Shown here in pieces: positions 16,196-58,762 of a stretch of 64,000 bases of DNA. Both the position numbers and the translations under genes were made by a program. Source of the DNA: a virus (lineage: Duplodnaviria; Heunggongvirae; Uroviricota; Caudoviricetes); the IMG/VR virus record IMGVR_UViG_3300033463_000003; one strand, written 5' to 3'. The notes below the pieces were generated by a model that saw only the letters and a program-made list of their open reading frames with translations, made no database searches and had not been told where the DNA came from. How positions within the stretch are numbered: position 1 is the stretch's first letter; every line of letters begins with the position of its first letter.

Positions 16196-17230
16196 ATGAA
16201 ATGACTTTTATTTACAGATAATCATTATTCAACAAGCTCCTCAATTATTAGAACAAGAGGTAATAAATATAGTGCTAGAATTGAAAACCAATTAGATTCA
16301 CTTAATTGGATTGAACGTTATGCAGAAGAACATAATATTGATGCTATTGCTTGCCTCGGTGATTTTTTTGATAAACCTGTTTTAACCGATGAAGAAATAA
16401 CAGGCCTAAGAGGAATTAAATGGAGTAATATTCAACATTATTTCTTAATTGGCAATCATGAATCAAGTTTTAATGATTTAGTTTTTAGTTCAACAACTGT
16501 TTTACAAAGAGCTAATACAAAAATTATTGATACACCTACAACAATTAAATTAGGTGATACACAAGTACTATTTTTACCTTATATTATTGAAAGTAATAGA
16601 AAGCCTTTAACTGAAACATTATCTTTTGATGCCTCAGTTAAAAAGCATATTGTATTATCACATAATGATATTAAAGGTGTTCAAATGGGAAGCATTACAT
16701 CACAAACAGGTGTTGATATTGATGAAATTGATAAAAACTGTGACTTATTTATTAATGGTCATTTACATAATGGTGGCTATATTACACCTAAAATTTTAAA
16801 CCTTGGCAATTTAACTGGACAAAACTTTGGTGAAAATGCTTTATTATATAAACATCAAATTGCTATTTTAGACACAGATACATTAGAAATTACTCTTATT
16901 GAAAACCCATATGCTCTTAACGTTTATAAGCTTGAAATTTTTGATAAGAAAGATTTAGCTGTATTTGATCAACTTAAAGATAATGCTGCAATATCAGTAA
17001 AATGTTTAAATACACTTGTTGATGATGTCAAAGAAGCAATCGCAAAGTTTAAAGAAGCACATACAACATTAACTACAAGATTGGTTGTTATTAATAGAAG
17101 TACTGAAGTTATGGCCGATAGACTTGATGAATTAACTGTTGACCACTTAGCAAAGTTTATTGAATTCTGTAAAGATAAAATTAATAATACAACTGTTTTA
17201 GCAACTGAATTGGCTGAGGTTTGTAAATAA
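16196..17230 (+). CDS. sbcD: SbcD/Mre11 (T4 gp47-like) nuclease; TGA=Trp at codon 3
   Basis: AGGAGG SD; MK(W)LLFTDNH, LGDFFD, GNHE, SHND, NGHLH in one frame. Confidence 0.9.
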
Positions 17231-17610
17231 TGAAAATATCAAAAGCATTTAGAAAAAAGTATAAAAAAATATGTAAATATTACGAAAATGCTTTTAAAGT
17301 ACAAGCAAAATTGAAAAAAACATATATTTATTATAATTTGGAATATGATGCATTATGTTTACAATATTTACGTGATTATTGCCTACTTTCTTACGACTTA
17401 ACGACTGATAAAGTGAAAGCTGAGCTTGTTTCTGCCTTACAGCTTACAGTTCAAGAATATATGATTTACTTAACACATTTACAAAACTGTGCATTTGCTG
17501 AAGAAGCTGAAGTTAGAAAGCAAGAAATGGAAGAAGCATACAAACACTTAGCAGTTATGCAGTCAATAATAGCAGCACATATAAAGGAGTTTACATTAGC
17601 CTATGAATAG
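17230..17610 (+). CDS. Hypothetical protein
   Basis: 126 aa, coupled by TAATG overlap. Confidence 0.75.
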   Translation: MKISKAFRKKYKKICKYYENAFKVQAKLKKTYIYYNLEYDALCLQYLRDYCLLSYDLTTDKVKAELVSALQLTVQEYMIYLTHLQNCAFAEEAEVRKQEMEEAYKHLAVMQSIIAAHIKEFTLAYE

Positions 17611-19474
17611 TTTAATTTATAATAAAATTATATTACATAACTTTGGAAGCTATGGCCATGCAGAAGTAGAATTAAGAAATAAAGGCTTCTGTTTAGTTTC
17701 AGGTAAAAATAATTATAAAAAAGATAACGCCCTTTCTAATGGTTCAGGAAAGAGCTTTTTGTGGTCTGCTATTTGTTATGCTTTAACAGGTGAAACTATT
17801 GGCGGCTTAACTTCGCATCTTAGAAACATTAATATTGAAGATGATGATACTTGTTATGTAACTTTATATTTAACAGTAGATGGTTCAGACTATATTATTA
17901 CACGCCATCATACACCAAAATCTGACTTAAAAATTATTAAAGATGGAAATGATGAATCTGGTAAAGGTATTCGTGAAAGTGAAAAGCACTTAGGTGAATT
18001 ACTTCCAGACTTAACTAAGGATTTAATTGCCTCAACTATTATTATTGGCCAAGGAATGCCGCATAAATTTTCAGCATTTAGCCCAAGTGGTCGTAAGGAA
18101 TTACTTGAAAAATTAACTAAATCTGATTTTATGATTGAAGATATTAAAAATAGAATTCAAGCCCGTCAATTAGAATTAGATAAACAAGTTAGAACATATG
18201 AAGATAGTATTCTTGTAAATAAAACACAATTAGGAACTGCCCAAAAAGCATTAGAAACAGCCCAAAATGAATTAGCTGAATTTAAGCCTATTGATTATAA
18301 TGCTGAAATAAAAATTCATACAGATAAATTAGCAGAGCTTAAAAAAGATCTTGCAGCTAATACTAAAGAGCTTTCTGCTGCTGAAAAAATTGTAGAAGAA
18401 TTAAATAAAAAGATTTTAGAGCTTACAAGTCAAAAAGCTGGTGAAGTTTCCTTATTAGCTGAAAACTATAATAAAAAATATCGCGAACTTATTGGTGAAA
18501 AGTCCCAGGTAGATGCAGAGCTTTCAAGTGTTAAAAAAGAAATTGCTCATGTAGAAGCAATGCCTGATGTTTGTCCAACCTGTAAGCGACCATTTGAGCC
18601 TGGTTATAAGCCAGATATTACAGATAAGAAAAAGCTTGTTGAAACATTAACCAAAAAAGTTTCAGCATGTAGTAATAAAATAACTGACTGCAATAAGAAA
18701 AATGCTCAATATACTACAGAAATTAACCAAAGATATGATGCAGATATTTCTGCAGCAAATACAAAGTTAACTGAAGCAAAAAAAGAAATTACAAGATTAA
18801 AAAATAATGATACTGATATTTCACACTTCATTAACTTAGAAGAAGATGAAATTAGAACATTAAGCTTCAAAAAAGAAAATGATACAAAACATTTAACAAC
18901 ATTAGCTTTAAACATTAAGAAGTATGAAAAAGATATTGCTGACTTAGAAAAAGCAATTCAAATTACAGACCAAGCTAATGCTGAAATAGCTGAACATTTA
19001 GCCGTTTTACGTAAGATGGATACATTAGTTAAACGTGATTTTAGAGGCTACTTATTAACTAATATTATTACATATTTAGACAAAAGAGCAAAAGATTATA
19101 GTGAATTAGTTTTTGGTACACGTGAACTTAATGTTTATCTTGACGGTAATGCTCTTGATATTTCCTACTGTAATAAATTAATGGAAAACTTATCAGGTGG
19201 TGAAAAACAAAGAGTAGATATTATTCTTCAATTAGCTCTTCGTGACCTATTAAGTGTATATTTAAACTATAGTGCAAATATTCTTGTTCTTGATGAAATC
19301 TTTGATAACTTAGACAGAGTTGCAACAGATAGAATTCTAAACTTAATTTCATCTGAGCTAAAAGATATTGAAAGCATCTTTATTATTTCACACCATGCTG
19401 ATTCATTAAATATTGGCTATGATTCTGAAATACTTGTAGTCAAAGATGAAAATGGAATAAGTGCAGTAATTTAG
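17603..19474 (+). CDS. sbcC: SbcC/Rad50 (T4 gp46-like) ATPase
   Basis: NGSGKS Walker A, coiled coil with CPTC hook, LSGGE, LVLDE..DNLD, IISH. Confidence 0.95.
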   Translation: MNSLIYNKIILHNFGSYGHAEVELRNKGFCLVSGKNNYKKDNALSNGSGKSFLWSAICYALTGETIGGLTSHLRNINIEDDDTCYVTLYLTVDGSDYIITRHHTPKSDLKIIKDGNDESGKGIRESEKHLGELLPDLTKDLIASTIIIGQGMPHKFSAFSPSGRKELLEKLTKSDFMIEDIKNRIQARQLELDKQVRTYEDSILVNKTQLGTAQKALETAQNELAEFKPIDYNAEIKIHTDKLAELKKDLAANTKELSAAEKIVEELNKKILELTSQKAGEVSLLAENYNKKYRELIGEKSQVDAELSSVKKEIAHVEAMPDVCPTCKRPFEPGYKPDITDKKKLVETLTKKVSACSNKITDCNKKNAQYTTEINQRYDADISAANTKLTEAKKEITRLKNNDTDISHFINLEEDEIRTLSFKKENDTKHLTTLALNIKKYEKDIADLEKAIQITDQANAEIAEHLAVLRKMDTLVKRDFRGYLLTNIITYLDKRAKDYSELVFGTRELNVYLDGNALDISYCNKLMENLSGGEKQRVDIILQLALRDLLSVYLNYSANILVLDEIFDNLDRVATDRILNLISSELKDIESIFIISHHADSLNIGYDSEILVVKDENGISAVI

Positions 19475-19546
19475 CTAAAAAATTATTTTTTGCATTTTAT
19501 TGTATAATATAATAAATAGATATTTATTAACGGGAGTGATTAAAAT

Positions 19547-20359
19547 ATGATCTGAAAAAAACCGGGCGACTTAAAATATACTGAGCTCTGTATGTATATA
19601 GATGCTAACATCCCAAAACTTGCTGAAGAGGGCAAGTATCCTGATGTTGAAAATACTATATATAATTATCTTTGGCTACTTGTTAAAGCATTAGCCATTA
19701 AAAAACGTATGTTCCAAAAGTTTGAAGATTATGATGGCTATGCTTTTTATTCTGCAAGTCGTTTGTTCTTCGCTATTAGAAAAAATTATCAAAACCAAGG
19801 CAAAATAATTAAAGGAAAAAAGATTAGGCCAATTAAATCTTCCTTAAACTATACAAAAGCTCTTTTATACCCAATGAAAGTTGAGTACCAAAGAAAAGAG
19901 TATAATGAAATTATTTCAGAAGAATTTACATCTAAAAAGTTTGATGCATTCAATTACAAAGAGCAATTAAAATCATTGGCTGCTGCTTCACAAGATTCTG
20001 CTGCATTAACAGTTGAATATATCAGGGATACTGTTATAAGCTGTCCTAAGATTATTGATGAAATATTAGCCAGCTCACCATTTGCACCAGATTCATTAGA
20101 CTATAAGAAACTTAAGATTTCATTATTGCTTAACTGCGTATATAGTTTAAAAACGAAAAATCAATTAACATATGATTTAAATACAATCTTCCTCTGGAAA
20201 CTACCAAAATCAATGGCAAGTTATGTGAAGGTATTAATTAAAGAATTTTATACCAAGTTGAAAAATGATTTACTCGACTGCTATGAAGTTCCTGACGATC
20301 GTATTTTAGAAAGATTAATAGCCAATCCAGAAGGAGACTTTGTAGATTATGAAGACTAG
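19547..20359 (+). CDS. Putative divergent (gp55-like) late sigma factor; TGA=Trp at codon 3
   Basis: GGGAG SD then ATG ATC TGA AAA in frame with the 19592 ORF; helical sigma-region-2-like pattern and position next to gp46/47 (inference). Confidence 0.4.
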
Positions 20360-20976: not shown

Positions 20977-20988
20977 GGAGTACAAAAT

Positions 20989-21315: not shown

Positions 21316-21317
21316 AA

Positions 21318-22552: not shown

Positions 22553-22566
22553 TTGAAAGGATTTTT

Positions 22567-24189: not shown

Positions 24190-26037
24190 ATGGCAGAAGA
24201 TTTAAAAAGTAAAAAGCTTCTAGTAATTGTTGAATCACCAAACAAAGTAGCCCACATTAAAGAATATCTTAAAAATGCTGGTTATAATGTAAGTGTTACT
24301 GCTTCTGTTGGCCATATTATGCACTTAGCTGATGGCGGAAGCTACTATAACTCTGGCATTAGTCCAAGCAAAGATTTTGAACTAAACTTGGAAGTGGCCG
24401 ATGATAAGCATCAAGTTGTAAATAAACTAAAAGATGCTATTAAAACTGCTGATTTAGTTTATTTAATGACCGACCCAGACCGTGAAGGGTATGTTATAAG
24501 TTGGAGCTTGGTGAAGTTTTTAAAGATCCCAAAAACTAAATATAGACGTGCTGTAACACATGAAATTACTCCTAAAGCAGTAGTTCATGCTATTGAAAAT
24601 CCTATTCCTATGGATGATAATTTAGTTGATGCTGGTTTAGCTAGAATGACACTTGATAAAATGATTGGCTACAGACTAAGCCCAATTTCTAAAACTTATG
24701 TTGGTGCTAAATCTGTTGGTAGATGTCAATCAGTTGGCCTTAAACTTATTGCAGATCGTGAACGTGAAATTCAAAACTTTAAGCCTGAAACATATTTTGA
24801 TATTTATCTAAACTTTGTTAAAAATAATACAAAATTTAAAGCAAAATATGCTGGCAATGAAAAAATTGGAAATATAGATCACTTAAAATCACAAAAAGAA
24901 GTTGATGCTGTTAAAAAGAATTGTACAGGCAAATATGTTATTGAAGCTATTAAATCTAAAACAAAAGAAGAGGCTCCAAAACCACCTTTCTGTACTGCAA
25001 CATTCCAACAAGAAGCTGCAAGTAAATTAAACCTAAAAGTTAAAGATGCTATGGCTATTGCTCAAAAACTATTTGAAGCTGGCTCAATTACTTATATGCG
25101 TACTGATGATACAGAATTTGCTCCTGAATTTATCCCTATCCTACAAAATTATATTGAAACTACTTATGGTAAAAAAGCATGGACTAAACCTCGTGTTGGT
25201 AAGAAACAAGAAACAGCCCAAGCTGGCCATGAGTGTTTAAGAATTACAGACCCAGCTGTTACACCAGAAAAGTATGCAAAACTTGACCCAAATGCTTTAA
25301 ATCAAAAAGTTTATAAGCTTATTTGGCAAAGAACTATTGCTGCAGCTCTTCCAAATGCTAAGATTTCTGAAACACAATACTTAATAGATAATAATGGTGA
25401 AAAATTTATCTTAACCTCTAATGAAATTACAAGTTTAGGTTATCGTGAAGTATATAGCTATAAAGATGACGATGACAAAGAGGAAAATGGAGTTGTTAAA
25501 GAAACATTTACCAAAGGCGAAGAACTTAAAAAATGTTCCCTTGATGATGTTAAAAAAGAAACTAGACCACCAGCAAGATATACAGAAGCTACTTTAATTA
25601 AAAAGCTGCAAGCTACAAATGTTGGTCGTCCATCTACATATGCCACAATTGTTGAAACTGTTTTAAGTCAATCAAGAGGCTATGCTGAACTTCAAGATAA
25701 AGCTATTGTTCCAACTGAAAGAGGTATGCAATTAGCTGCTTTCTTAGATAGAACATTTAATAATATTATTAACATAGATTATACTAAAAACATGGAAGAA
25801 AATTTAGATAAAATTGCTGATGGCAAGATGAAAAAGCTAGATTTTCTTAAAGAATTCTATAATACACTTGAAAATACAATTAAAAACAGCACTGAAATAA
25901 AAGCTGCTTCACAAACAACTGATGAGGTATGTCCATTATGTGGTGCACCAATGGTTATTAGAAGAAATAAATATGGCAACTTATTCTTAGGTTGTTCAAA
26001 GTATCCAAAGTGTAAGGGCATTAAAAATATAAACTAA
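24190..26037 (+). CDS. topA: DNA topoisomerase IA
   Basis: VIVESPNK, DPDREG, SVGRCQS, ITYMRTD, GRPSTYA, C-terminal Zn ribbon. Confidence 0.96.
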   Translation: MAEDLKSKKLLVIVESPNKVAHIKEYLKNAGYNVSVTASVGHIMHLADGGSYYNSGISPSKDFELNLEVADDKHQVVNKLKDAIKTADLVYLMTDPDREGYVISWSLVKFLKIPKTKYRRAVTHEITPKAVVHAIENPIPMDDNLVDAGLARMTLDKMIGYRLSPISKTYVGAKSVGRCQSVGLKLIADREREIQNFKPETYFDIYLNFVKNNTKFKAKYAGNEKIGNIDHLKSQKEVDAVKKNCTGKYVIEAIKSKTKEEAPKPPFCTATFQQEAASKLNLKVKDAMAIAQKLFEAGSITYMRTDDTEFAPEFIPILQNYIETTYGKKAWTKPRVGKKQETAQAGHECLRITDPAVTPEKYAKLDPNALNQKVYKLIWQRTIAAALPNAKISETQYLIDNNGEKFILTSNEITSLGYREVYSYKDDDDKEENGVVKETFTKGEELKKCSLDDVKKETRPPARYTEATLIKKLQATNVGRPSTYATIVETVLSQSRGYAELQDKAIVPTERGMQLAAFLDRTFNNIINIDYTKNMEENLDKIADGKMKKLDFLKEFYNTLENTIKNSTEIKAASQTTDEVCPLCGAPMVIRRNKYGNLFLGCSKYPKCKGIKNIN

Positions 26038-31572: not shown

Positions 31573-31725
31573 TTAAATAAAGTAATAGTCAAGAAAAACA
31601 ACAGTAAATTACTGTTGTTTTTTATTATATTTGCTAAATTATATGATATCAAGGCTGTTGCTCTTATCCTTTCATCAGCAGCTTTGGTATCACTGAAGTA
31701 AAATATTGTAGTATTGGAGCACTAT

Positions 31726-33585
31726 ATGGAAAATAAAGAATTAATTGAAGATATGTTAGATGAAGCCTCAAATTTAAGTGCATATGAAAAAATGGACCTT
31801 TTTAATAGAGGCCAAAGAAGAGAAAATGTTAAGGCTTGTGGTGACCAAAAGCTTTTTGATTATCGTAGAATTTGTCAAAATAATAATTTTAATGTTGCAC
31901 TTGACCAAATTGAAGCTGAAATGGTAGCAAGAGGATTAATTTCTACATCACAAACAAGATTAGCACAAACTTCTGCAGCACAACAATCAAATGCTCCAAA
32001 ATTAATTAGTATTATTGCAGAAGATTTTTATATTCCAGATGCATTATTTGTAAAAGAACATCCAGAATCAAAAGCTATTATTGAACGCTATATGGCAGAA
32101 ACAGGCACAATTAAAAAAGCTATTGTTGCCCTTATTTTTGCTCTTTGTTTAAAACACCCACAAGAAGTTATTGATGAATTAAAAACATTTATTACTGTTA
32201 ACTGTGGTATTTCTAAAAATGAATTAAAAGCAATTATTTCAAGTTGCTTATCCGACCCAGAAATCTTAAAACGTATTGAACTTTGCGTTCGTGGTGCTTT
32301 AAGTTATCATGAAGATTTAGAAGAAGGAAAGAAAAAGAAAAAACCATATTCTTCAATGTCAATTACAACTGGTGATATTGCTTATAATATTGCACAATTT
32401 AATAAACGCATGGGCACTAATTTCCCAGGTAATGATAATAATAACCCAAGTACTGCTGAAGCACAAGCTGCTGCTGCAAAAGCTAATAATGCAGTTAGCG
32501 ATGGTGCAGGTGATGCTTCATCAAGTAGCTCTGCTGGCGAGGGCTCTGGTATAGCCTCTGGTGGTGATGCTGGAGCATCAGCTGGTGAAGGTGCTGGAAT
32601 GGGTGAAAGCCTAAAAGAAGGTAAGAAAAAATTTGCAGATGTTTTAATTAAAGTTGCTAAAGAAGCTGCTAAAAAATATAATGAACTTGACCAAGCAGAA
32701 AGAGACTGGCTAGAACAAGCTGGAACCTCTATGATTTTTGAAGATCAACCAGAATATTCAGAAATTCTTGACCCATTAAATCATTTTGATATTGAAGATT
32801 TAAAAGCTAATGGCATTAATACTGAAGATGAAGATTCAGCTTCTGATGATGCCTTCTGAGCTTTAGATAATAATTTCTGGGAATTTACTAAATCAGCAAC
32901 TGAAAGCTTAGAAGCAACTGTTGACCAAGATTTAAATGATAATAGACAACCAGAAAATGAGTTTGATTTAGAATTTGATAAACCACTTGATGCGAATGAA
33001 GTTAGAAAACATGAGGCTGGAATTGAAGAAGATTTGGACCCAATGAAAGCTTGGTATGATGCTGCTCTTGCTATTGCTAAACAAAATAATAAACCTGTTA
33101 TTTATGGTTATTTTTCAAAAGGTAAATATAATCAAGTAGACCCAATTATTTGTGATGATATGATTGCTTGTAATAGAGAATTTATGAAAAAATATCATCC
33201 AAGTGGAAGTATTTTAATTGCATACCCAGATAAACCATTTGTTGAAGAAGTTAATGAAGGCTTAAAAGAAGAGCTTAAAAAAGTTACTACTGAAGAAGAT
33301 TTATTTGACTTATACTATAATAACTGGCTTGACTGCGATGTAGACATTGATGATTTGCATGGTAGTTTTGAAGATGGTTTAAGTGGTAATGAATTTGATG
33401 AAGATGCAGCTTTAGAAATTTATGGCTGGAGTGATGCTTATGATTATCTTGAATCTATGTATGATTTAGGTAAAGATATTCATGATAGAGGTTTACAAGC
33501 AGTAGTTGCAGATGAAATTGCAAATAGAGACCCAAATGATCCAGATGATAAAGAATTACTTGAAGATACAGATATTATAAAATAA
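31726..33585 (+). CDS. Multi-module acidic protein (putative head-internal); one TGA=Trp at 32857
   Basis: Track ORFs 31714 and 33034 are in frame, separated only by TGA (DAF-W-ALDNNFW). Confidence 0.75.
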
Positions 33586-38182: not shown

Positions 38183-38275
38183 AAATTAATTATAAAAAGA
38201 AGGCAAAAACTAACTGCTTTCTTTTTTATTTTACTTCTGCATTTGCTAAATTATATGATTATTGAGGCGAATGTA

Positions 38276-40151: not shown

Positions 40152-42206
40152 ATGATATCTAACGTTGAAAATATATCTCAAGCATTAAATAACTTATCTG
40201 AAGAAGAAAAGCAGGCTGCTCTTGAAATTTTAAAAGAAATGGCTGCTCAAGGTAAATCAGATCTTTTAGATAGTTTAAAATATAGCGATTTTGCTGAAAT
40301 ACCTGTTGGTATTGAAGAGTTTTTAGATAACGATTTATACTTAGGTAAGGGTATTTGAGAACGTGATGAAGTTACGGGTGAACGTAGATGCACCCTTTTT
40401 CCATATTGACGTGATACACTTAAAAAAGTATTTCCAGATAATTTAACAACCGCCTACAATACATTGATATTGACAGGCTCAATTGGTTTAGGTAAAACTT
40501 TGTGTGCTGTTTTATGCATGCTTTATTTATTATACAGAATGTTATGCTTAAAAGATCCATATTCTTATTATAGAATGATGCCTTCTGATAAGATTTCATT
40601 TTCAATGTTAAATATTACCTTAGATACAGCTCAAGGTGTTGGTTGGGATAAGCTACAGCAGCTAGTTCAAAATTCACCATGATTTTTAGAGCATGGTGCT
40701 ATGAATGCTAGCAGAACAAATCCTATGTGGCAACCAGATAAACATATTGAGCTTATTTTTGGTTCTAGTAATAACCACGTCGTAGGCCGTGCACTATTCT
40801 GCAATTTTACAGATGAAGTTAACTTTGGTATCGGCGGCGATGTTGAAAAGAAAAAAGCAAAGCAAAAGAAACTTATTGCCCAAATCGATGCTCGTATGAA
40901 ATCACGTTTTGGTAAAGGAACATATCTACCAACTCTAAATATTATTGCATCATCTAAAGATACAGAGCAAGCATTCTTAGATTCATATATTAATACTAAG
41001 AGGCAAAATGAAAGTAAAACGACTCTTATTATTGATGAACCACAATGGGTTGTTAGAAATGATAAAGGAACACCAAATGACCCTGGTTCATTCTGGGTTG
41101 CTGTTGGTGGTAAATTCTTAGCTCATGAGCTTCTTCCAGTTGGTGCTGATGAAGCAATGGTTGATAGCTTCCGCGATAAGGGCTATCAAATGCTCAAAGT
41201 CCCACCTATATTCCGTGAAGATTTTGAAACAAACCTAGAACAAGCCTTAATGGATATTGCTGGTTTATCAAGTGCTTCAAGTACAAAATATATTTCTGGT
41301 ATAAGATTAAATCAGGCAAAAGTTGATACATATGTAAATCCATTTACAAAAGATATAATTGAAGTTGGTAATAATCCTGATGATCACTATCAATATGCTA
41401 ACTTCTTCGATTTATCTGCAGTAAGTGGTGATGACTTAGCAAAACCACTATTTATTCATCTTGATATGTCGTTATCAGGGGACAAAACTGGTATTGCTGG
41501 AGTCTGAATTACTGGAAAGCGACCAACACGTGAAGGTGAAGAAGCATCCAGGGAATTACAATATAAACTAGCATTTTCTGTATCAGTTAAAGCACCTAAG
41601 GGTTTCCAAGTTAGCTTTGAAAAAAATAGAAACTTTATTAGATGATTACGTGATAGAGGATTTACTATTAAGGGTATTTCATCTGATACCTTCCAATCAG
41701 CACAAATTCAACAAGATTTAAAAAGTGATGGATTTGATACACAAATTATATCTGTTGACCGTGTTGACACTCAAAGTAAGATTTGTATACCATACCATTA
41801 TTTACAGTCAGCTATTTATGAACGACGTATACAAATATATAAAAAATGTGATTTATTAACAGATGAATTAATTGGCCTTGAGCGACTATCAAATGGTAAA
41901 ATTGACCACACACCTGATGGAATTAACTCAAAGGACCAAGCTGACGCAGTGTGTGGTGCCCTATATCTGGCTAGTAAGTTTGCTGAAGAATACGCCTATG
42001 ATTATGGTGAAAGCTTAGAAGCAACAGTAGATGCAAATACTGAACTTACTGAAGAAGATAGAAGAAAACAGATGATTGCAGATTGACAGACTGAATTGGC
42101 TAAAATATATATGGCCGAACAGAAAGCAATTGATGCAGAAACGGCTAAGAAAAAAGCCGATTATGAGTATTATAAGGACCTAAGTGATGGTATTATAATT
42201 ATATAA
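40152..42206 (+). CDS. terL: Terminase large subunit (6 TGA=Trp)
   Basis: Walker A LTGSIGLGKT, FTDEVNF, HLDMSLSGD, SKDQADA; TGA at 40356, 40407, 40680 (SP-W-F), 41505, 41643, 42084; TAA 42204. Confidence 0.92.
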
Positions 42207-42222: not shown

Positions 42223-44163
42223 ATGGCAAATACAAAACCAAAAAATACCAAAAGTAAAAGCCCATTAGTTGGAAATCAAGCAAAACCAACAGTATTAGAC
42301 TCTACAACAAAATTAGATATTGATACCAACAAAGTATTTATTGATAATATTATTGATGCTGGTATTAATGGCGGTTTGAATTTAGGAGCATTAGAAAACT
42401 TTACCTCTATTTCAAATAACAGAGACCAAATTTATACGTTGATTGACACTATGGCAGCCGACTCTTCTGTTTCAGCTATTGTTAGAACTTATGCTGAAGA
42501 AGTTTGTGAAACCAGTGATAATGGCCATGTTGTCTGGTGTGAATCTCAAGATCCAAAAGTTAGTAAGTTTATTAATTACTTATTAAATGTTATGAATGTT
42601 GATAAAAATATTTATAACTGGACCTATAACTTAATTAAATATGGTGATGTTTATCTAAGATTATACCGTGAATCTGACTATGAAGATAAGCTTTTCAAAA
42701 AAGATAATATTGGTAAAGCTGATATGGGTAGAAAATTACATGAAGGTGCTGAAGATGTAAATGAAAGTGTTACATTAAATATGCATACAGCAAATGACCC
42801 ATATTCATACTATGTTGAAATGGTTCCAGATCCAAGCACAATGTTTGAATTAACTAAATATGGTAAAACATATGGCTACATTGAAACACCAAATGCAGAC
42901 ATTCAACAAAATTATCTTCAAACAATGCAAACAGAAACTCAAAACTATTTAAGTTATAGAATGAAATCGTCTGATGTTAATGTTTATCAAGCTGATGATT
43001 TTGTACATGCTTGCTTAGAAGATAATGTTTCAAGATATCCAGAAACTGTAGAAATATTTACAAACCAAGATGATTACACTAATTCTAAAAATGCATTAAC
43101 ATATAAAGTTAGACGTGGTAAATCACTTCTTTATGACTCATATAAAATCTGGCGTGAAAAACAATTACTTGAAAATGCTGCACTATTAAATAGAATTACA
43201 AGATCAAGTATTGTTAGAAATATTCAAGTTGAAGTTGGAAACATGCCAAAAGAGCAAGTCCAACTAACATTAAGAAGAATTAAAGAATTATTTGAACAAA
43301 AATCAAGTGTCAATGTTGGAAATGGCATGACAGAATATACTAACCCAGGTGCCATTGAAAATAATATCTTTACTGCTACACACAATGGTCAAGGTGCTAT
43401 TACAGTAAATAGTGTCGGTGGTGATGTTGATGTTAAAAACCTTGCTGACTTAGACTGGTGGAATAATAAATTCTATTCATCTTATGGCATTCCAAAACAA
43501 TACTTTGGCTGGACAGATGATAGCACAGGTTTCAATGGTGGCTCTTCATTAACAATTTTATCAAGTGTATTTGCTAAAGGCGTTAAAAGAGTACAAAATG
43601 CTATTCTTCAAGCAATTACCGATAGTATTAATTTAATTTTAGTTAATAAAGGACTTAAAGCATACCTTAATAACTTTGTTCTTAAAATGCGTGCCCCATT
43701 AACTCAAGAAGAAGTTGACTATCGTTCAAATCTTACTGATAGAATTAATGCAATTAGTAACTTACAAAGCTTATTCACTGATGTTGAAGATAAAGTTAGA
43801 AGATTAGAAATCTTAAAATCTTTAGTTGCTACATTAAACTATGGTGATGATATTATTGAAGAAATAGAAAAAGAAATTGAAGCTGCAAAGCAAGCTAAGA
43901 AAGAAAAAGCTGAAAAAGAGGCAGAAGAAGCTAAAGCTGCTGAAGCTGAAGCTGCTAGCGGTGAAGCAACAGAAACAACTGAAGAAGCACCTGCTGAAGA
44001 AAGCGATGAAGAGCTTGACTTAGGCATGGCTGAAATTGCTACAGAAGGCATTAAAGAAAAAACAGGTGAAATCTTATTAGAAGATACAATTGTTGAAAGT
44101 GATGATGACCTTCCAACTCCAGAAGAAGTTAATGAAAAAATTGACTTTTCTAAAAATAAATAG
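42223..44163 (+). CDS. Portal protein (T4 gp20-like)
   Basis: Follows terminase; KYGDVYL, GKSLL, LLENAALLNRITRS, VEVGNMP, YGIPKQY. Confidence 0.88.
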   Translation: MANTKPKNTKSKSPLVGNQAKPTVLDSTTKLDIDTNKVFIDNIIDAGINGGLNLGALENFTSISNNRDQIYTLIDTMAADSSVSAIVRTYAEEVCETSDNGHVVWCESQDPKVSKFINYLLNVMNVDKNIYNWTYNLIKYGDVYLRLYRESDYEDKLFKKDNIGKADMGRKLHEGAEDVNESVTLNMHTANDPYSYYVEMVPDPSTMFELTKYGKTYGYIETPNADIQQNYLQTMQTETQNYLSYRMKSSDVNVYQADDFVHACLEDNVSRYPETVEIFTNQDDYTNSKNALTYKVRRGKSLLYDSYKIWREKQLLENAALLNRITRSSIVRNIQVEVGNMPKEQVQLTLRRIKELFEQKSSVNVGNGMTEYTNPGAIENNIFTATHNGQGAITVNSVGGDVDVKNLADLDWWNNKFYSSYGIPKQYFGWTDDSTGFNGGSSLTILSSVFAKGVKRVQNAILQAITDSINLILVNKGLKAYLNNFVLKMRAPLTQEEVDYRSNLTDRINAISNLQSLFTDVEDKVRRLEILKSLVATLNYGDDIIEEIEKEIEAAKQAKKEKAEKEAEEAKAAEAEAASGEATETTEEAPAEESDEELDLGMAEIATEGIKEKTGEILLEDTIVESDDDLPTPEEVNEKIDFSKNK

Positions 44164-44190
44164 TAGATAATTTGAAAGGAAATACTAATT

Positions 44191-44661
44191 ATGATTACAA
44201 AAAATGATTGTTTATCAATTTTAGTTAAATTAGAAGATCAAGGTGTTAATATTGATTTGCCTATGCGTAAATTAGTTGTTAGCAAAGAAGTACCAATTGA
44301 AGTTTTAAAATTTATTTCAGAACATCGTGGTATTGAAGTAAGTAATTTCTATGAAATGCTTAGAAAAAGGCATAATCAAAAGAAATCACCATTATATACT
44401 AATATTTTAAAAGAAATTTCAGATATGGATGACGTTATTACTACATTATCTTGCTTCTTAACTCAAATTATTCTATATAGTTCAAAACTTCAAGCACGTG
44501 ATAGCTTCATTAAAGAGGTTAGAGCTGAAGAAGTTACAAGAGTTTTAAATACTTATTTTAAAACTGGTGATGGCTCTGCCTGTATTGCACTTTTAAAACT
44601 AATTAAATCTGATTTATTGGTTTTAGAATATATAAGTGGTAGACGTGAACTAGCTGCTTAA
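44191..44661 (+). CDS. Hypothetical protein
   Basis: 156 aa, AAAGGA SD. Confidence 0.75.
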   Translation: MITKNDCLSILVKLEDQGVNIDLPMRKLVVSKEVPIEVLKFISEHRGIEVSNFYEMLRKRHNQKKSPLYTNILKEISDMDDVITTLSCFLTQIILYSSKLQARDSFIKEVRAEEVTRVLNTYFKTGDGSACIALLKLIKSDLLVLEYISGRRELAA

Positions 44662-44950
44662 TATATAAAAACATTTAGAACATTAAAAGCCCAAAGTTAA
44701 TTGGGCTTTTTATTTTTATACTACTTTTATTTTTATATGCTAAATTAATTGGTTTTTTGCAGTATATTGATTACTTGCAAATACTATTTATAAGCATTTT
44801 TAATAAATTATTAAATTATTAACGATGTTTATTCGCTAAATTAAAATGATTGGAGCATTCCTCTAATCTAATTTATGATAACTTGCCTGGTAATGGTCGA
44901 CCTGCTAGTTATCAGGTAAGTTTGTAAATTTGGAGATTGGAAAGATACGC

Positions 44951-46879
44951 ATGATGAAAAACAAAAAAGTTATTAAAGAAATGCTTAACTTTCAAGACTT
45001 AACTGAAGAAGAAAAAAAGTCTAGAGGTATATTGGGACGTTTATACGGACCATGTGCTTCTATCATCGCCCCGACAAGAAACGGACGTAAGTATTCTGAT
45101 GAAGTCTGGGAAAAAGTATTTAATGAAAATGAAATTGTAAAGGAAATGTTTGCAAATGGTGGAATTCCTATGGAACTTGACCATCCAGCAGACAGGGAAG
45201 AAACTTGTAGTGAAAAAATTGCTGCTATGCTTCCTGAGCCACCAAAGAAAGATAATGATGGCCACTTAATTTGTTATGTTGACCTCATTGATACTCCTTG
45301 TGGTAGAATTGCTTATCAATTAGCAAAGTACGGTTTCAAGCTCGGAATTAGTTCTAGAGGCACTGGTGATTTATATACTGATGCTGATGGAAATGAATCC
45401 GTTGACCCAGATACCTATGACTTTACAACATTTGACCTTGTTCTTCTACCAGCAGTTAAAGATGCTAGATTAACAATGACTGAATCATATAAGCCTTCTA
45501 ATGAAGCTGGATTCAAAAAAGCCCTTGTTGAATCTCTTGAAGTTGCATCTGATGCTGATAAAAGAGTTATGGAAGAAACTTTAAAGGACTTAAATATCAG
45601 TTTAACTGAAGAAGTCTGCGTTGAAGATGTTCCATATGAAGATCCAGAAGAACCTATTACTGATTTATTAATTGAAGAAACCAGTGAAGAGACTCCTGTG
45701 ATTGAAGAAACCGAATCTACTGAGGAGGCCAATGAACCTTCTGAGGAAACTAGCACTGAAGCTCCTGTTGAAGAAGTGTCAGAAGAACCATCTGAAGAAG
45801 AAAACATTGAGCCTGAAGTAGAAGCTGGTGAAGAAGCAGTTGTAGAAGCTCCAAAAGCAGAAACAATTGGCGACTTAGTTAAAGAATTAACTGAATATAA
45901 TGACGATTTAAGTGTAGAATTTAAACCATTAGTCATTGAAGATAAAGAATACGAAATTGCTGGATTAGAGTTTGATAATTCTGAAGAAGGTAAAGTCGTA
46001 ATTACAATTGGTTATAACTCTGAAAAGGGTGATAATATAGATAGTAGCGAAGAAAAGGTTGAAGGTGAAGAACCTGCAGAACCTGCTACAATTGCTGATG
46101 ATGAAACTTCCACAAGTGAAGAAGTTGCCTCTGAAGAAGCTGTCGATGACGGGAACGAAGAAGTAATTGAAAGCCTTAAAGAAATGATTCGTCAGAAGAA
46201 TTTACTTGAGCAAACAGTTAGTGATCTTAAAGCTGCTAAAACAGTTGGCGATGCCGAGGTCGAACATCTGAAAGAGGAACTTAACAAATACAAAACATCA
46301 TTTGCAAGAGTAAGCGAGTTGGCCGCAGATTCTAAACGCTTTGAAAAAGAAGTTCAATCCTTAACTGAACAATTATCTAAGAAAGATTCCGAAATAGCGG
46401 AATTAAAACAAGCACATAAAGTTAGCTTGACAGAAAGTGCAAAAGCTAAAGCAGATGAAGTTAAAGTGCTTACTGAAAAACTTGCCACTAAGGCACAAGA
46501 AGTTGAAGATGTTAAAGTACAAGCAACTGAAAATGCTACCGCACTCAGAAAAACTATTAATGAACGCACAGAAATTGCTAAGAAATATAAAGCAAAATAT
46601 GAAAGCGTTGTTAGACGTTATATTGAGTCAAAAGCTTCTATGCTCGGTGTCAGACCAACTGAAATTACCAGCAGATTAAATGAACATTATTCTTTAGATG
46701 ATGTTGATAAAGTCTGTGAAGAATTATTAGATATTAATTTCAATACATTACCATTTAATACTGGTCGTGGTGCGAAAGTAAATATCAAAGAGTCTAATGA
46801 ACGTAAGGTTCAAGCCTCTGATCCTGATAATGGTTATGAAATCGATGATGATTTATTAATCTTAGCTGGATTGAAATAA
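44951..46879 (+). CDS. Prohead protease (T4 gp21-like) fused to acidic/coiled-coil scaffold
   Basis: NGRKY, ELDHP, DTPCG, LGISSRGTG, FDLVLLPA; long coiled-coil C-terminus. Confidence 0.9.
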   Translation: MMKNKKVIKEMLNFQDLTEEEKKSRGILGRLYGPCASIIAPTRNGRKYSDEVWEKVFNENEIVKEMFANGGIPMELDHPADREETCSEKIAAMLPEPPKKDNDGHLICYVDLIDTPCGRIAYQLAKYGFKLGISSRGTGDLYTDADGNESVDPDTYDFTTFDLVLLPAVKDARLTMTESYKPSNEAGFKKALVESLEVASDADKRVMEETLKDLNISLTEEVCVEDVPYEDPEEPITDLLIEETSEETPVIEETESTEEANEPSEETSTEAPVEEVSEEPSEEENIEPEVEAGEEAVVEAPKAETIGDLVKELTEYNDDLSVEFKPLVIEDKEYEIAGLEFDNSEEGKVVITIGYNSEKGDNIDSSEEKVEGEEPAEPATIADDETSTSEEVASEEAVDDGNEEVIESLKEMIRQKNLLEQTVSDLKAAKTVGDAEVEHLKEELNKYKTSFARVSELAADSKRFEKEVQSLTEQLSKKDSEIAELKQAHKVSLTESAKAKADEVKVLTEKLATKAQEVEDVKVQATENATALRKTINERTEIAKKYKAKYESVVRRYIESKASMLGVRPTEITSRLNEHYSLDDVDKVCEELLDINFNTLPFNTGRGAKVNIKESNERKVQASDPDNGYEIDDDLLILAGLK

Positions 46880-46905
46880 AAATTTAATTTATAAAGGAAA
46901 TGATT

Positions 46906-48273
46906 ATGAGACAAAATTTACTTGAAACTTATTCTCGTCAATTAAAAGTCGCAGAAGCTTATGTCGCAAAGAATTTCGATAAAACAGTCTCTGCTAATAC
47001 AAAATTGACAACTGCTGTCTTATTAGACAACACAAACAGATGGATGACAGAAGCTTTCAGTACAACCGCAACTGCTAGAGCAGATATGGGCGATTGGAAG
47101 AAATTCTGCTTAAACCTCACAAACATCGCTGTTCCATCATTAATCGCTAATGATTTAGTCATCGTTCACCCAATGACTTCTTACAGCGGATCTGTTGCAT
47201 ACTTAAAGTATGTCAGCAAAACTGATAAGGGTGGAGTCGTTAAAGGACAAGAATTCAACTCTGTTTTCGGTCTTGGTGAAATGAGCCCAGCTCGTGAAAA
47301 ATTCACAAGCCAAGTCATCGTTGAAGAAGTCGGTTCTAACGGCGAATTACTTTTACACCCAGTTAAGAACGGTCGCTTCGTTAACCCAGAAGATGAATCA
47401 AAACATGACGCTAAAGTCAAACGTGATGGTAAAGATGTTTACCTTGATGTCATCGGTGAAGGCGAAGAAGCTCACCTTGATGTTGCAGCTGGTGAAAAAG
47501 TTGCTTACATTGCTGCTGAATTCCAAATGGAACAAGTTCCAGCAATCGACATCCCAACAATTGGTCCAAAACTCGAACACATCGCTTTAGTTGCAGAACC
47601 AAGACGTATTGCTGTCCGTTATGACCAAATCACTGCTTTCCAAGCAAAAACTGACTACGGCTTCTCACTCGATAAACAAATCGCTGAACAAGCTTGTGGT
47701 GAATTAGCATACGAAATCGATACAGAAATCGTTGCAATGTTAGCTGAAGGTGCTGGTAAAGCTCTTCCAGAATTAACATGGTCCAAAGTTCTTCCTGTTG
47801 GCGTTAGCAAATTCGAACACTACAATGGCTTCTTAGAAGTTATTGAAAAAGCTCGTGCTATCATCTACAAGAGAACACAAAAATTCCATCCTAACTATAT
47901 GGTCATCTCTTCTGACGTTCTTCCAGTTTTAAGATTCGTTAATGGATTTACAGCTGTCAAGAATGCTAAGATGAATGGTCCTTATAAAGTTGGTGAATTA
48001 GATGGTTTATCAATCTATGTTTCCCCAATCCTTAAAGATGGCGAATTCTTCTTTGGATTAAACGGCTCTGACATGATGTCATCTGCTGGTGTCTATGCTC
48101 CATATATGGCTATCGTTCCAACACAATTACTTGGAACACCAGATGGTGGTTTAGCACAAGGCTTCTCAACTTGGTATGCCAAAGCCTTACTCAACACTAA
48201 TTTATTAGTTGCTGGTAAGATCATTGGTGGCGAACCATTCGAAGGCACCACTTACGGTGTCATCAATGGCTAA
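46906..48273 (+). CDS. Major capsid protein (T4 gp23-like)
   Basis: LIANDLVIVHPM, ELAYEIDTE, GVYAPYM; high-expression codon bias; follows scaffold. Confidence 0.92.
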   Translation: MRQNLLETYSRQLKVAEAYVAKNFDKTVSANTKLTTAVLLDNTNRWMTEAFSTTATARADMGDWKKFCLNLTNIAVPSLIANDLVIVHPMTSYSGSVAYLKYVSKTDKGGVVKGQEFNSVFGLGEMSPAREKFTSQVIVEEVGSNGELLLHPVKNGRFVNPEDESKHDAKVKRDGKDVYLDVIGEGEEAHLDVAAGEKVAYIAAEFQMEQVPAIDIPTIGPKLEHIALVAEPRRIAVRYDQITAFQAKTDYGFSLDKQIAEQACGELAYEIDTEIVAMLAEGAGKALPELTWSKVLPVGVSKFEHYNGFLEVIEKARAIIYKRTQKFHPNYMVISSDVLPVLRFVNGFTAVKNAKMNGPYKVGELDGLSIYVSPILKDGEFFFGLNGSDMMSSAGVYAPYMAIVPTQLLGTPDGGLAQGFSTWYAKALLNTNLLVAGKIIGGEPFEGTTYGVING

Positions 48274-48334: not shown

Positions 48335-48394
48335 ATATTAAATCTTAGCTGAATTTGCTAAATTATACAAAGAGTAAAGGAAAATTATTTTAAT

Positions 48395-51223
48395 ATGACT
48401 ACTTATGCAGCATATAATTTAAATGAAGATATTAGAAAAAAGAGTTCCTCAGGGGGAGTTTTTTACGAATTAGCTAAATATACTATTGAACATGACGGCT
48501 ATGTTTTTGGAGCAGCTTGAAATAAAGATTGATTTGTTGATATATGTTATATTAAGAAGCTAGAAGACTTACCAAAATTAATGGGGTCTAAATATGTAAA
48601 AGCTGATAATAAAAATACTTTTAAAGAATGTAAAGAATTTTTAGATTCTGGAAAACAAGTTTTATATTCTGGTACTCCTTGTCAAATATATGCATTAAAA
48701 TTTTTCCTTAAAAAAGATTATGATAATTTATTAACTGTTAGTGTTGCTTGTTTTGGGACTACTCCGCTTGTTGTTTGAAAAGACTACTTAGAAACAATTA
48801 AAAGACCAGATGCTGAAATAACAGAAATAAACTTAAGAGATAAATCTGATACTAATTGAAATAATTATAAATATACTATTAAATATTCTGATGGAAAAAT
48901 AATCTCAGAAAACCATTTAAATAATAAATATTCAAAAGCATATATAAGTGCTGGTTATTTTAATAAACCATGTTATAATTGTATAGCCAAAAAAGAGTTA
49001 AAATCTGATATTTCTATTGGTGATTTTTGAGGAGTTCAAGAAGCTTTGCCAAAAATTGATGCAAAGCTTGGAGTTAGTTTTATTATCTGTAACTCAAACA
49101 AAGGTGAAAAGATTATTAAAGCTCTTAATAATCTAAAGCTTGAAGAAATTAAAGATATAAATAAAGTTAAAAAATTTAACCGTGGAATTCAAGAGACTCC
49201 AGGAACTAAAGAGACTACTTATAATAAAAATATTTTTAGGAAAAAAGTAGCAATAGTTACAATGAATTTACATTTTAATATTGGAACAGCTTTACAAGCT
49301 TATGCCTTACAAAAAGTTATTTTAGATAATGGTTATGATTGTGATGTAATTACATGAGCTCGTAAAGATAGACTTCATTTTTGTGATACCTATATTAAAA
49401 TGAGAATTTTACCTACTGCACAAGATTATGATAAAATAAAAGAATCTGACTATGATATATTTGTAGTTGGTAGTGACCAAATTTGGAGAAAAAACACTAG
49501 TTTAAAAGACTATAAAGAAAACTATATTAATTACCCATTTTTAGGATTTACTGCCAACTGAAGCAAAGTTAGATTTTCATATGCAGCTTCATTTGGAACT
49601 TCTTGACAATATGATAAAGCAGAAGACGAAAAAATAACAAATATTTTAAAGCAATTTAATGCACTATCTACCAGAGAATTAAGCTCAATTATAGACTGCG
49701 AAGATAAGCTTGGCCTAAATTTTGAGCAACATATTGACCCAACTATGTTGCTAAACAAAGAAGACTACCTAAAGCTTTGTTCAAATATTACTGCAAATCA
49801 TAATAAAAATATTTTTAAATATATTTTACATGAGACAACAGATAAAACTAATTTTATTAATGAAAAAGCAAAAAAATTAGGATTACCAATAACTACACAT
49901 AATAAACTATATGTGGTAGACTGGCTTGCTAAGATGCGTGATACTAGTTTAGTAATTACAGATTCTTTCCATGGTGTGATTTTTTCTATTATTTTTAATA
50001 AACCATTTATTTACTGAAATACTAGAGACAGTGGTAAAGCTCGTTTTGAAACTATTGAAAAATTATTTAATATCCAGAATAGACAAATTAAAGATAATTT
50101 TACTATTACTGATGAATTGCTTAAACCGGCTAATATTAATTTAAATAATAACAGACAAAAAAGTTTGGATTATATATTAAAAAATTTGGCCGCTGTACCA
50201 CAACAATTAACTATTAACCTTTCACAAAATAAATTAAACTGGCAAAAAAATAATAAACAAGCCTGAATGTTATTTTTAAGCTCAGATAACTATATTTATT
50301 ATGTATTAAATGTTTATAAAAATTTATTAGATCACAATACTAAATATGCAGTATGCTGTGGTTATACAGAAGATGTTAGTCAAACAACTGTTAATATATT
50401 AAATAAATGTGGGATTATTACCTTTAAACTTGATACTAAAGCTATTTTGCATGAAAATATTAAACTTAGGGGCATATCTAATTGAATTAAAGCTTTTACA
50501 AAACTTGGCTTATTGAAGAACCAGCTTAATTTAGATAAAATGATCTATCTAGATTCTGACTTAGGAATTTATGATAATATTGATGAATTATTTAATAAGC
50601 CACATATGAGTGCAGTGCTAGATGGTGCGCCACTTCCAAATAGAAAACCTGGACCATATCAAATTGGAGATTCTATTTTTTGTTCTGGTCTGTTTGTTTG
50701 AGATTTTAAGAATAATAATAATGATGCTAATAAATTATTACAATTATTACCAAAGCTTCCAAAAGATGTAGAATGACATGACCAAAATGTTTTAAACTAC
50801 TACTATAAAGACTGACAAAATCAAAAAAATTTACATTTAGATTATACATATGGTCTTATGACTACTATTCCTAAATTTAAATTTGTTAACCCAGTTAGAG
50901 GTAAAAACTGACCTAAAGTTATACACTATATAGCTGGCCAAGGTGAGAAAACAAAAATACCATTTATAAATCAAAAATTTAATCTTCAAAGTTGATGTGA
51001 TATGCTATTAATAGATGATTACTATACTGAAATAAATAATAGCATTATTGCATTAAAACAATTATATGATTTTGATTTGCCTCTTATTAGTACTCAAAAT
51101 ATTGTACATAAAAAAGCAGATAAAATTGCAGCCAAAGAAGAAACTATAAAGTGAGCAGAAATAGAACAAAAGAAAAAAGATATACGTGCAGATGGCAGAC
51201 CAAATACTTACCTATATTTTTAA
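48395..51223 (+). CDS. 942-aa fusion: FrhB-like (F420 hydrogenase beta) + polysaccharide pyruvyl transferase + GT8 glycosyltransferase (17 TGA=Trp)
   Basis: Single frame with no TAA/TAG; SSSGG, GSKY, GTPCQ, IGDF(W)G; GSDQIW, YAASFG, DPTML, TDSFHG; FTKL, YLDSD, DQNVLN, VIHY. Confidence 0.88.
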
Positions 51224-51232
51224 GGAGATTAT

Positions 51233-52108: not shown

Positions 52109-52834
52109 ATGACTAAAAAAGATGTTGCCGATGAAATAAAACTTGAACTTACTGGCCAAATCTTAGAACTTGAAATCGATGACTCAACAATTGACCTTAT
52201 AATTAGTAAGGGATTACGTGAGCTTCAAAGATTCTGGGATGAGTCATCAATGATAAGCGTTCCATATGCTTCTTGTATTGATTACTCAGGAACACCATTA
52301 GAAGATTCAAGCTCAATTGTTAAGGTATATAGAACGCAAGGCTTAGGTGTTGCAGGTGGTACAACTGATATATCTGTAAACTCTGACCCACTATATATGC
52401 AACAATGAATGATCTTCAGTAATGGTGGAACAATGTATAATTTAAATGATTATGTAATGAATTATGCAGCTTGGAGTACCTTATCCCAAATCAAAAATAC
52501 AATTTCTACAGATATGGCATTCAGAGAGGACAAGCACAATCACAAGCTCTATATTAATTGTGCTATGGGAGCTCCTAGCGGAATTACAATAGAGTATATA
52601 CCAAAATTACAAAAAGTTGAAGATATTAAAAGTGATTATTGAATTGATATACTAATTAAATTATGCTTAGCGTTAACAAAAATAACACTTGGCAGAATTA
52701 GAACCAGATTTACCCAATCAAATACACTTTGGGCACAAGATGGTGAAACAATGCTAAGTGAAGGAACCACTGAGCTTAAAGAATTACGTGATATGCTCAC
52801 ATCGAATTCTAATTTAATTTATCCAATTGATTAA
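52109..52834 (+). CDS. Neck/head-completion protein (gp13-like), 2 TGA=Trp
   Basis: Track fragments joined at TGA 52406 and 52640; LGRIRTRF...DGETMLSEG. Confidence 0.7.
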
Positions 52835-57733: not shown

Positions 57734-57736
57734 TTT

Positions 57737-58066
57737 ATGTTATTTATTGCACAAAGCCATAAATATACACCAAAAGGACTTGTTAAAATAAAGATAAAAA
57801 GAATTGCTAAATATCATGTCTACCATTGAAAATTATCTGGAAATGATATAGCAGTTGATAATTATTGTAAACAAAAATATAATAAATCATTAAAAGAAGT
57901 TTGTTGATATATTATTGATAAAATAAAAGTATTTATAAGCAATGATGAAAATCAATATATTATAATACTTGAAGATAAAAATTTAGATAAGCTTGCCCAT
58001 ATAATCACTTATGGTAATGGTGAAATTGGTGGAAGTCAAATATTACAAAAAGCATTTATATTCTAA
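57737..58066 (+). CDS. Hypothetical protein (2 TGA=Trp), absent from ORF track
   Basis: 109 aa filling the gap exactly; ends IITYGNGEIGGSQILQKAFIF. Confidence 0.7.
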
Positions 58067-58084
58067 GAAAGGGAGTAATCAAAT

Positions 58085-58762
58085 ATGGCAATAAGATATT
58101 ATGATGATGCTATTATAAAAAAATTACTACGCTGGGTACCAGAAAACCAGGGCCTACGTGTTTTAAAGCCAGATGAAACAAAAAGATTATTTGAAATAAT
58201 TGCTGATGATACTAATGACAAACCAATTAGACTTCCATTCATTGCCCTTTCAAGAAATACAGATATTGAACTATTATCAAACATTAAACAAAACAAATCT
58301 TTTGATGGTTTATGATTAAATAACAACAAACTTGACCTCAATAATAGAGTAATTGAAGAAAGTTCAAGCACAACAATATTCAATGTTATTCCAATTCTTC
58401 CACAATATCAACTAGATATTTATACTAAAACTTATGAAGAAGCGGATGAATTATTAAGAAATATACTATTTAAATTAATTAATAATCCTGCAATTTATAT
58501 TTCAATTCCTTATAATGGACAAAATATAACGCACATTGCAAATATCAGAGTTTTAAGTGGTTTAGCTGATAATAGTGGTATTAATGAGCGTATATTTTCT
58601 GGCCAATTTACTAGATGAACAATACAGCTTGAAATTCATGACGCCTTCCTATTCAGCATACCATATAGAAATAACTGAAGAATTGGTGAAAGTGCCCTCG
58701 AAGTGTCTGAAAAAATGGACTTAGATGGCGAAATTGAAGTTGCATATAGCAATAAAAATTAA
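58085..58762 (+). CDS. Tail terminator/sheath stabilizer (gp15-like), 3 TGA=Trp
   Basis: RLPFIALSR, YQLDIYTK; TGA at 58313, 58616, 58676. Confidence 0.7.

Follow-up and report, generated by a model that had tools for sequence, protein, structure and literature searches.

The stretch of 64,000 nucleotides analysed here (the window), from the Caudoviricetes record IMGVR_UViG_3300033463_000003 of IMG/VR, raises the question why TGA codons are found inside some of its reading frames and are missing from others. Ten genes between 16.2 and 58.8 kb require 39 in-frame TGA codons to be read through (Table 1). The original prediction, made from the letters alone, held that TGA is tryptophan in a selected subset of genes, and offered two explanations: a code switch in a host using code 11, or a code-4 host in which UGA is decoded slowly. 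The results presented below agree with the tryptophan assignment. They suggest, with a probability that we put at roughly 0.6, that the uneven distribution of TGA reflects a balance of two forces, AT mutation pressure on the one side and the cost of leaky suppression on the other, rather than a designed gate. This figure applies jointly to the whole explanation, including the assignment of the window to a T4-like jumbo myophage with a genome of about 225-273 kb. The phage comes from metagenomes of the gut or rumen type, and the genes in which it reads TGA as Trp are middle and late genes.

In-frame TGA codons and their reading

In the comparison of codes 4 and 11, proposed with the original prediction, translation under code 4 merged the fragmented frames and raised the coding density from 0.752 (standard code) to 0.877. 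For annotation this means that code 11 splits the terminase, the neck proteins and a 942-aa enzyme into fragments. None of the 49 open reading frames (ORFs) of at least 100 aa stops at TGA; all end in TAA or TAG, as had been stated for the called genes. Our standard-code comparison genome, G001 (221 kb, 73% identity in the large terminase, TerL), has its TGA codons at ORF ends, where they terminate 41 of 211 ORFs (19%), and its TerL gene contains nine TGG and no TGA. The TGA counts reported earlier for single genes were exact (terminase 6, neck 2, tail terminator 3, NTase 3, HNH 3, glycan enzyme 17). The gene named NTase (gene 36659; genes are designated by their start positions) has its three TGA codons, but the name was not confirmed: the sole match was phrog_36119, a family of unknown function.

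To avoid bias, the TGA codons of the window were masked as X before alignment. Sixteen masked sites could be aligned with G001; ten fell on TGG, the other six on F, F, I, H, L and R. In TerL, W86 (of the FPYW motif), W177, W452 and W498 are invariant columns, encoded by TGG in standard-code relatives, and TGA and TGG swap at the same Trp columns among ten genomes. The TerL of the JGI contig of the window translates only if TGA is read as Trp. The second informative protein is a fusion of FrhB-like, pyruvyl transferase and GT8 domains (the glycan enzyme). W is found at its site 212 (IGDF-W-G) in 145 out of 147 homologs and at site 155 in 99 out of 146, and the other TGA sites align with W or aromatic residues. 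In the comparison with the standard-code homolog L085, TGG was present at all nine aligned sites with Trp in L085; the tenth site (541) is ATT. The location of TGA at conserved Trp positions, claimed earlier for FPY-W and IGDF-W-G, was thus borne out.

Two genes carry their only TGA as the third codon. The SbcD-like gene starts M-K-TGA-L-L-F-T-D-N-H and has no alternative in-frame start; the TGA of gene 19547 aligns with TGG in a standard-code relative. Both codons are genuine. In gene 31714 homology to P0272 begins at residue 391, before the first possible code-11 start (codon 441), so that the upstream TGA has to be a sense codon. The TGAs at 21303/21306 (ORF 21300) and 52845 (ORF 52827) were set aside as probable artefacts of upstream start extension.

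We also considered that TGA, instead of Trp, might stand for Gly (its meaning in code 25), selenocysteine or cysteine, or that the genes are broken. ARAGORN labels a UCA tRNA of the relatives, described below, as 'SeC'. The label results from the long extra arm of the molecule, whose acceptor stem, G73 and anticodon stem are those of a tRNA-Trp. When code 25 was tested, the TGA sites aligned with W, F and Y, and Gly was a minor residue, at non-conserved sites only. The masked sites were overwhelmingly W or aromatic, and never consistently G or C. Essential genes (those for TerL and the neck protein) are affected in several lineages and are therefore not pseudogenes. A reading other than Trp is hardly credible; judged from the alignments, TGA is tryptophan in the window.

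The suppressor tRNA and the code of the host

As noted earlier, the window has no tRNA(TCA). ARAGORN detected nine tRNAs, and Rfam added Val(UAC) at 613-683 and a cut Asp(GUC) at 1-52; as suppressor candidates the latter two were rejected on their anticodons. In the tRNA-Val(UAC), which was missed by ARAGORN and scored 40.7 bits with Rfam, the T-loop is atypical and one pair of the anticodon stem is mismatched. A blastn search of the window with the suppressor sequence of the relatives gave no match. L071, identical over a 740-nt overlap, shows tRNAs for Asn, Ile, Trp(CCA) and Phe immediately before the start of the window.

A UCA tRNA of 95-96 nt occurs in two close relatives, L054 and L060, and in G002/G003, a recoded relative that is more distant. 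In L054 and L060 it is located inside the tRNA array; these two share 89% and 83% identity, respectively, with the 83-aa ORF at 206-457 of the window. By analogy with these relatives, the genome of the window is likely to encode a UCA suppressor as well. The tRNA has five arms (L054:5301-5395; L060:12965-13059; L066:12376-12471): the UCA anticodon arm is followed by a second hairpin, with a stem of 5 bp and a 7-nt loop (CUCCAAA) identical with the anticodon loop of tRNA-Trp(CCA). The three copies agree in every base of this second arm, although one of them belongs to a phage of far higher AT content (26% GC). In the first arm of the L060 copy, two base pairs have undergone compensatory changes. 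Two further RNA genes were seen in relatives. The tRNA array of L060, a close relative, contains a transfer-messenger RNA gene called by ARAGORN (L060:11645-12025), with no counterpart reported in the window. In L038 (13030-13218; G001 208029-208217) a tRNA has a 118-nt insert in the anticodon loop; within this insert are a T-arm like that of a tRNA and a 3′ strand ending in CCA.

The code of the host was assessed from the distribution of TGA and from the sister phages. The genes before 16.2 kb (about 19) contain 64 TGG and no TGA, as described in the original prediction, and the rest of the window has 39 TGA and 92 TGG (Fisher p=2e-8). The separation of standard-code early genes from recoded structural and late genes has two exceptions, the SbcD-like gene and gene 19547, each with one TGA. 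The A-ending codons of Lys, Glu and Gln make up 87%, which we used as the neutral expectation for the TGA share of Trp codons. The complete lack of TGA in the early genes despite this bias argues for strong selection keeping TGA out of genes that a naive host translates. In standard-code sister phages, whose TerL is 71-75% identical, TGA serves as an ordinary stop.

If the host itself used code 4, the phage would merely avoid a slowly decoded codon in its highly expressed genes. This would fit the AT-rich genome (32% GC), the lack of TGA stops, and the RF-1 and PCRF domain searches in G001-G003, in which no release-factor gene was found. It is at odds with the early genes, where none of 64 Trp codons is TGA and about 87% would be expected under neutrality, and with the TGA stops of the sister phages; moreover, the UCA suppressor of the relatives would be superfluous. 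Of the two models put forward earlier, the code-4 host with slow UGA is therefore very unlikely. A standard-code bacterium in which the code switch is driven by the phage is strongly favoured by the TGA-free early genes and the standard-code sisters, and the tRNA-Trp(CCA) carried by the phage fits such a host.

Distribution of TGA among the later genes

TGA is unevenly distributed also among the genes between 24 and 62 kb (permutation p<5e-5; p=2e-4 without the glycan enzyme). The genes for the high-copy proteins (portal, protease, capsid, sheath and tube) have no TGA and 23 TGG, and the other genes from 31.7 kb onwards 37 TGA and 39 TGG (p=4e-6). The exclusive use of TGG in these five genes and in TopA had been predicted; Pfam and PHROGs upheld the identities of all six. 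Of all genes in the window, that for the capsid protein is the most strongly biased in codon usage (C-ending fraction 0.56). Within genes TGA is not concentrated toward the 5′ end (mean relative position 0.52, compared with 0.49 for TGG; p=0.69), and the base following TGA does not differ markedly from that following TGG.

In the glycan enzyme 17 of the 20 Trp codons are TGA (85%), matching the A-ending bias, so that positive selection is not needed to explain its TGA content. The gene represents the unconstrained end of the spectrum and is no evidence of positive selection. A foreign origin, by recent import from a code-4 organism, was rejected: the closest homologs occupy the corresponding locus of related phages, whether these use the standard code or are recoded, and the gene does not stand out from the window in its codon usage. 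The cassette to which it belongs, a FrhB-like and pyruvyl transferase fusion (with a GT8 domain or none) and a protein of ~260-270 aa, lies upstream of the gp13-like neck gene in phages of both codes (window 48395-52021, L084:2975-6629, L085:8001-10706). In the window it is placed between the capsid and neck genes.

The TGA/TGG counts of some genes are stable among recoded relatives. The major capsid protein gene has 0/4 in the window, 0/4 in L006 and 0/2 in G003 (partial gene), and the terminase gene 6/4 in the window, 5/3 in L067 and 4/3 in L006 (57-62% TGA in three lineages). For the glycan enzyme the counts are 17/3 in the window, 18/1 in L084 (47% identity) and 5/3 in the shorter L006 homolog, which covers the C-terminal part (range 63-95%). 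Other genes vary: gene 29601 has 0/7 in the window and 4/1 in L067; gene 33606 has 0/7 in the window, 7/5 in L067, and 3/6 and 1/4 in L006; the sheath gene has 0/9 in the window and 2/2 in G002, and the tube gene 0/3 and 2/3, respectively. Judged from these counts, the TGA-bearing subset of late genes is conserved in part only. The restriction of TGA to some genes, as originally claimed, is real, but these genes do not make up a fixed and selected set for the gating of packaging and assembly completion, because orthologs of TGA-free genes carry TGA in the relatives. Code 4 raised the coding density of G002 and G003 by 15-16 points. In L006 the terminase gene is interrupted between residues 115 and 116 by an insertion of ~1 kb (L006:10318-11351), in frame under code 4 (ORF of 1032 aa) and possibly an intein or an endonuclease encoded by an intron.

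Two promoter-like motifs were found. GCTAAATTA has 12 exact sites on the + strand, from 11688 to 62408, usually followed by WWTGA, and sits 20-90 nt upstream of the starts at 11720, 26155, 31714, 38276, 44930, 48395, 52109, 58856, 61415 and 62431. The motif probably serves the phage as a promoter element for late or middle genes. TGTATAATA, which resembles an extended -10 element, has 11 exact + strand sites between 2739 and 40121. It occurs just upstream of genes 2765, 5108, 12080, 16196, 19547, 23057, 31141 and 40152, with two further sites (6461 and 8827) in a gene-poor stretch. No match to TTTACA-N16-18-TATAAT was found in the window. Neither motif separates the two classes, as each precedes TGA-free and TGA-bearing genes.

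The explanation that we prefer can be outlined as follows. A phage-encoded UCA suppressor derived from tRNA-Trp would decode UGA as Trp in a standard-code bacterium. In the early genes the ban on TGA would be absolute, because the unmodified host ribosome must translate them, and TGA stops would have been purged from the whole genome because later in infection they would be read through. In the later genes strong AT pressure would drive TGG to TGA, toward the neutral expectation of about 87%. Each TGA would nevertheless be costly, because suppression competes with release factor 2, and we infer that this cost rises with the amount of protein required. The outcome would differ from gene to gene: abundant virion proteins, the capsid protein among them, would have ~0% TGA, the terminase ~60% and a low-demand enzyme ~85-95%. 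Delayed translation of the terminase, the nucleases and the neck proteins would be a consequence of this balance, although selection may exploit the delay too.

Several observations weigh against this explanation. With the capsid left aside, the TGA fraction did not correlate significantly with a codon-bias proxy of expression (Spearman -0.28, p=0.19). The TGA-free genes 26155, 29601 and 33606 are of unassigned function and copy number. Since sheath and tube carry TGA in the more AT-rich G002, the expression-linked avoidance is not absolute. The suppressor was not found in the parts of the genome that were scanned, the window and 509 nt upstream, and the code of the host is deduced from phage sequences. 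Finally, three TGA-bearing genes (SbcD-like, 19547 and TerL) are located behind host-type extended -10 elements, the first two with TGA in codon 3, an arrangement that looks more like deliberate gating.

Under such gating, TGA would be positively selected in the terminase, the nucleases, the neck and tail-completion proteins and the glycan enzyme, blocking their synthesis until the suppressor has accumulated; translation would supply the timing that leaky promoters do not. The three genes directly behind TGTATAATA, an extended -10 element like that of host sigma-70 promoters, bear TGA all the same, and in the SbcD-like gene and gene 19547 it occupies the position where an aborted product is cheapest. 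The presence of TGTATAATA before these genes is the best hint that TGA acts as a translational lock on possibly early-transcribed genes. All recoded lineages that were examined have TGA-rich genes for TerL and the glycan enzyme, and a gating function was proposed by Borges et al., with a few gene families significantly TGA-biased (bioRxiv 10.1101/2021.08.26.457843). These arguments must be set against the glycan enzyme, whose TGA share equals the neutral A/G bias, the lack of an overall 5′ concentration, the variation of the TGA-bearing gene set among relatives, and the GCTAAATTA-type units, which hold TGA-free and TGA-rich genes alike. We regard gating as a rather unlikely explanation, though the most serious competitor of the balance model.

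Another possibility is that recoding is recent, TGA has not yet spread to all late genes and the present subset is a historical accident. The TGA-free state of gene 29601, gene 33606, sheath and tube is indeed not kept in relatives, and TGA makes up 20% of all Trp codons in the window, less than in the more AT-rich G002 (29%). In a small TerL tree, however, the recoded lineages formed one clade (support 1.0), each with its own set of TGA sites. The three lineages have diverged by 21-29% in TerL and their TGA sites turn over, which indicates that recoding is not very recent and argues against a simple lack of time. The terminase is at ~60% and the capsid at 0% in all three lineages, the glycan enzyme has reached equilibrium, and the heterogeneity remains highly significant when the glycan enzyme is left out. 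Unfinished drift is improbable.

A more speculative proposal, slightly less probable than gating, is that the TGA share of each gene is a reproducible selected trait, close to zero in abundant virion proteins, ~60% in the terminase and at mutational saturation in the glycan enzyme, which is taken to be virion-associated. The codon-3 TGAs of the SbcD-like gene and gene 19547, behind promoters of host type, would serve as very cheap translational locks that offset early transcription. If it were true, a reassigned codon would provide graded, gene-by-gene control of expression, beyond an early/late switch.

Layout of the window and comparison with known recoded phages

All genes of the window are on the + strand. 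From left to right they comprise the last part of a tRNA array, an early block, a recombination block (SbcD, SbcC), a topoisomerase and a T4-like morphogenesis block (Table 1). In the last of these the structural module of a T4-like myovirus is present as one block, with Portal_T4, a Gp23-type capsid protein, gp13- and gp15-type neck proteins, sheath, tube and baseplate hub. The 684-aa terminase product of the window is on record on contigs of up to 273 kb, which points to a jumbo phage. A megablast search of the window against GenBank phages gave no match.

Table 1. Features of the window, with counts of in-frame TGA and TGG codons
Feature	Coordinates	Strand	TGA	TGG	Remarks
Distal end of phage tRNA array	1..2683	+			Asp (cut), Met, Val(UAC), Gly x2, Arg, Cys, Ser x2, Leu x2; array extends upstream of the window
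Early block, compatible with the standard code	206..16102	+	0	64	Thg1-like, DUF5662, methyltransferase and Pnkp/RNA ligase genes; no TGA stops
SbcD-like nuclease	16196..17230	+	1		TGA at codon 3 (16202); ribosome-binding site AAGGAGG; downstream of TGTATAATA element
Gene 19547	19547..20359	+	1		TGA at codon 3 (19553), start M-I-TGA; downstream of TGTATAATA element
TopA-type topoisomerase	24190..26037	+	0	3	
Gene 31714	31714..33585	+	1		TGA at 32857 (codon 382)
Gene 36659	36659..38182	+	3	4	TGA at codon 395 aligns with TGG in G001
HNH/DNase-like protein	38243..40108	+	3	3	Likely start 38276; GCTAAATTA motif upstream at 38245
Large terminase (TerL)	40152..42206	+	6	4	TGA at codons 69, 86, 177, 452, 498, 645; TGTATAATA element at 40121
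Portal, 156-aa protein, head maturation protease, Gp23-like major capsid protein	42223..48273	+	0	11	
FrhB-like, pyruvyl transferase and GT8 fusion (glycan enzyme)	48395..51223	+	17	3	GCTAAATTA motif at 48357
gp13-like neck (head-tail adaptor) protein	52109..52834	+	2	3	
109-aa protein	57737..58066	+	2	0	
gp15-like tail-sheath stabiliser/terminator	58085..58762	+	3	1	
Tail sheath, tail tube, baseplate hub	58856..62203	+	0	12	

A Thg1-like gene (3212-4147) and a gene for a Pnkp-type fusion of kinase, phosphatase and RNA ligase (12080-14350) adjoin the tRNA array, which suggests functions in tRNA repair or maturation. The segment 6392-9004 (~2.6 kb) is nearly ORF-free, with a single 76-aa ORF (8332-8562), and contains no tRNA and no Rfam family at gathering score. 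Nine successive small genes at 20349-24006 have only one Trp codon in 1165 codons (Poisson P=7e-5; window average 1.04%). This scarcity is not due to recoding, because the orthologous block of the standard-code G001 (about 66.6-70.2 kb) is equally poor in Trp.

In Mycoplasma and Spiroplasma, which use code 4, UGA is read by tRNA-Trp(UCA), and Trp is encoded mainly by TGA across the whole genome. The window resembles these bacteria and their phages in that UGA is Trp and AT pressure favours TGA over TGG. It differs from them by the block of about 19 genes without TGA, and by the decoding tRNA, which in the relatives is phage-borne. Other parallels are the TGA- or TAG-recoded crAss-like phages described by Peters et al. 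in 2022 and by Yutin et al. in 2021, in which a phage-borne switch is said to operate in a standard-code host and late genes to be recoded; TAG recoding in crAss-like phages has reportedly been validated by metaproteomics. Those phages are podovirus-like Crassvirales, whereas the window derives from a T4-like myovirus.

Borges et al. (bioRxiv 10.1101/2021.08.26.457843) described recoded phages that are close relatives of standard-code phages, with clade mean genome sizes of 154-210 kb. In those phages structural and lysis genes are recoded and replication genes variably so, suppressor tRNAs were detected in only 35% of the code-4 genomes, and gene-family tests showed that only some families strongly prefer the recoded codon (bioRxiv 10.1101/2021.08.26.457843). 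The window is like the Agate and Jade types of TGA-recoded gut phages in having TGA at Trp positions of structural genes, early genes in the standard code and no TGA stops. Further common features are a suppressor tRNA in recoded members (here in the relatives), close standard-code relatives, a large genome, not far from the clade means just given, and a strong preference for TGA in only some gene families. The likeness is drawn from the description of these types. The preprint reportedly appeared later in Nature Microbiology (2022). In contrast to the Agate and Jade types, the recoded lineages studied here form a single TerL clade with no sign of repeated gains, SbcD and 19547, which are replication and recombination genes of the window, have one TGA each, in the third codon, and the most recoded gene encodes a glycan-modifying enzyme rather than a lysis or tail protein.

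The window is a clear new example of TGA-to-Trp recoding as described by Borges et al., a phenomenon already known, and it adds no new principle to phage stop-codon recoding. It does offer a comparison set in which one recoded clade stands beside standard-code sisters. With this set the spread of a reassigned stop codon can be measured across expression levels, from a per-gene TGA share of 0% to the equilibrium at ~87%.

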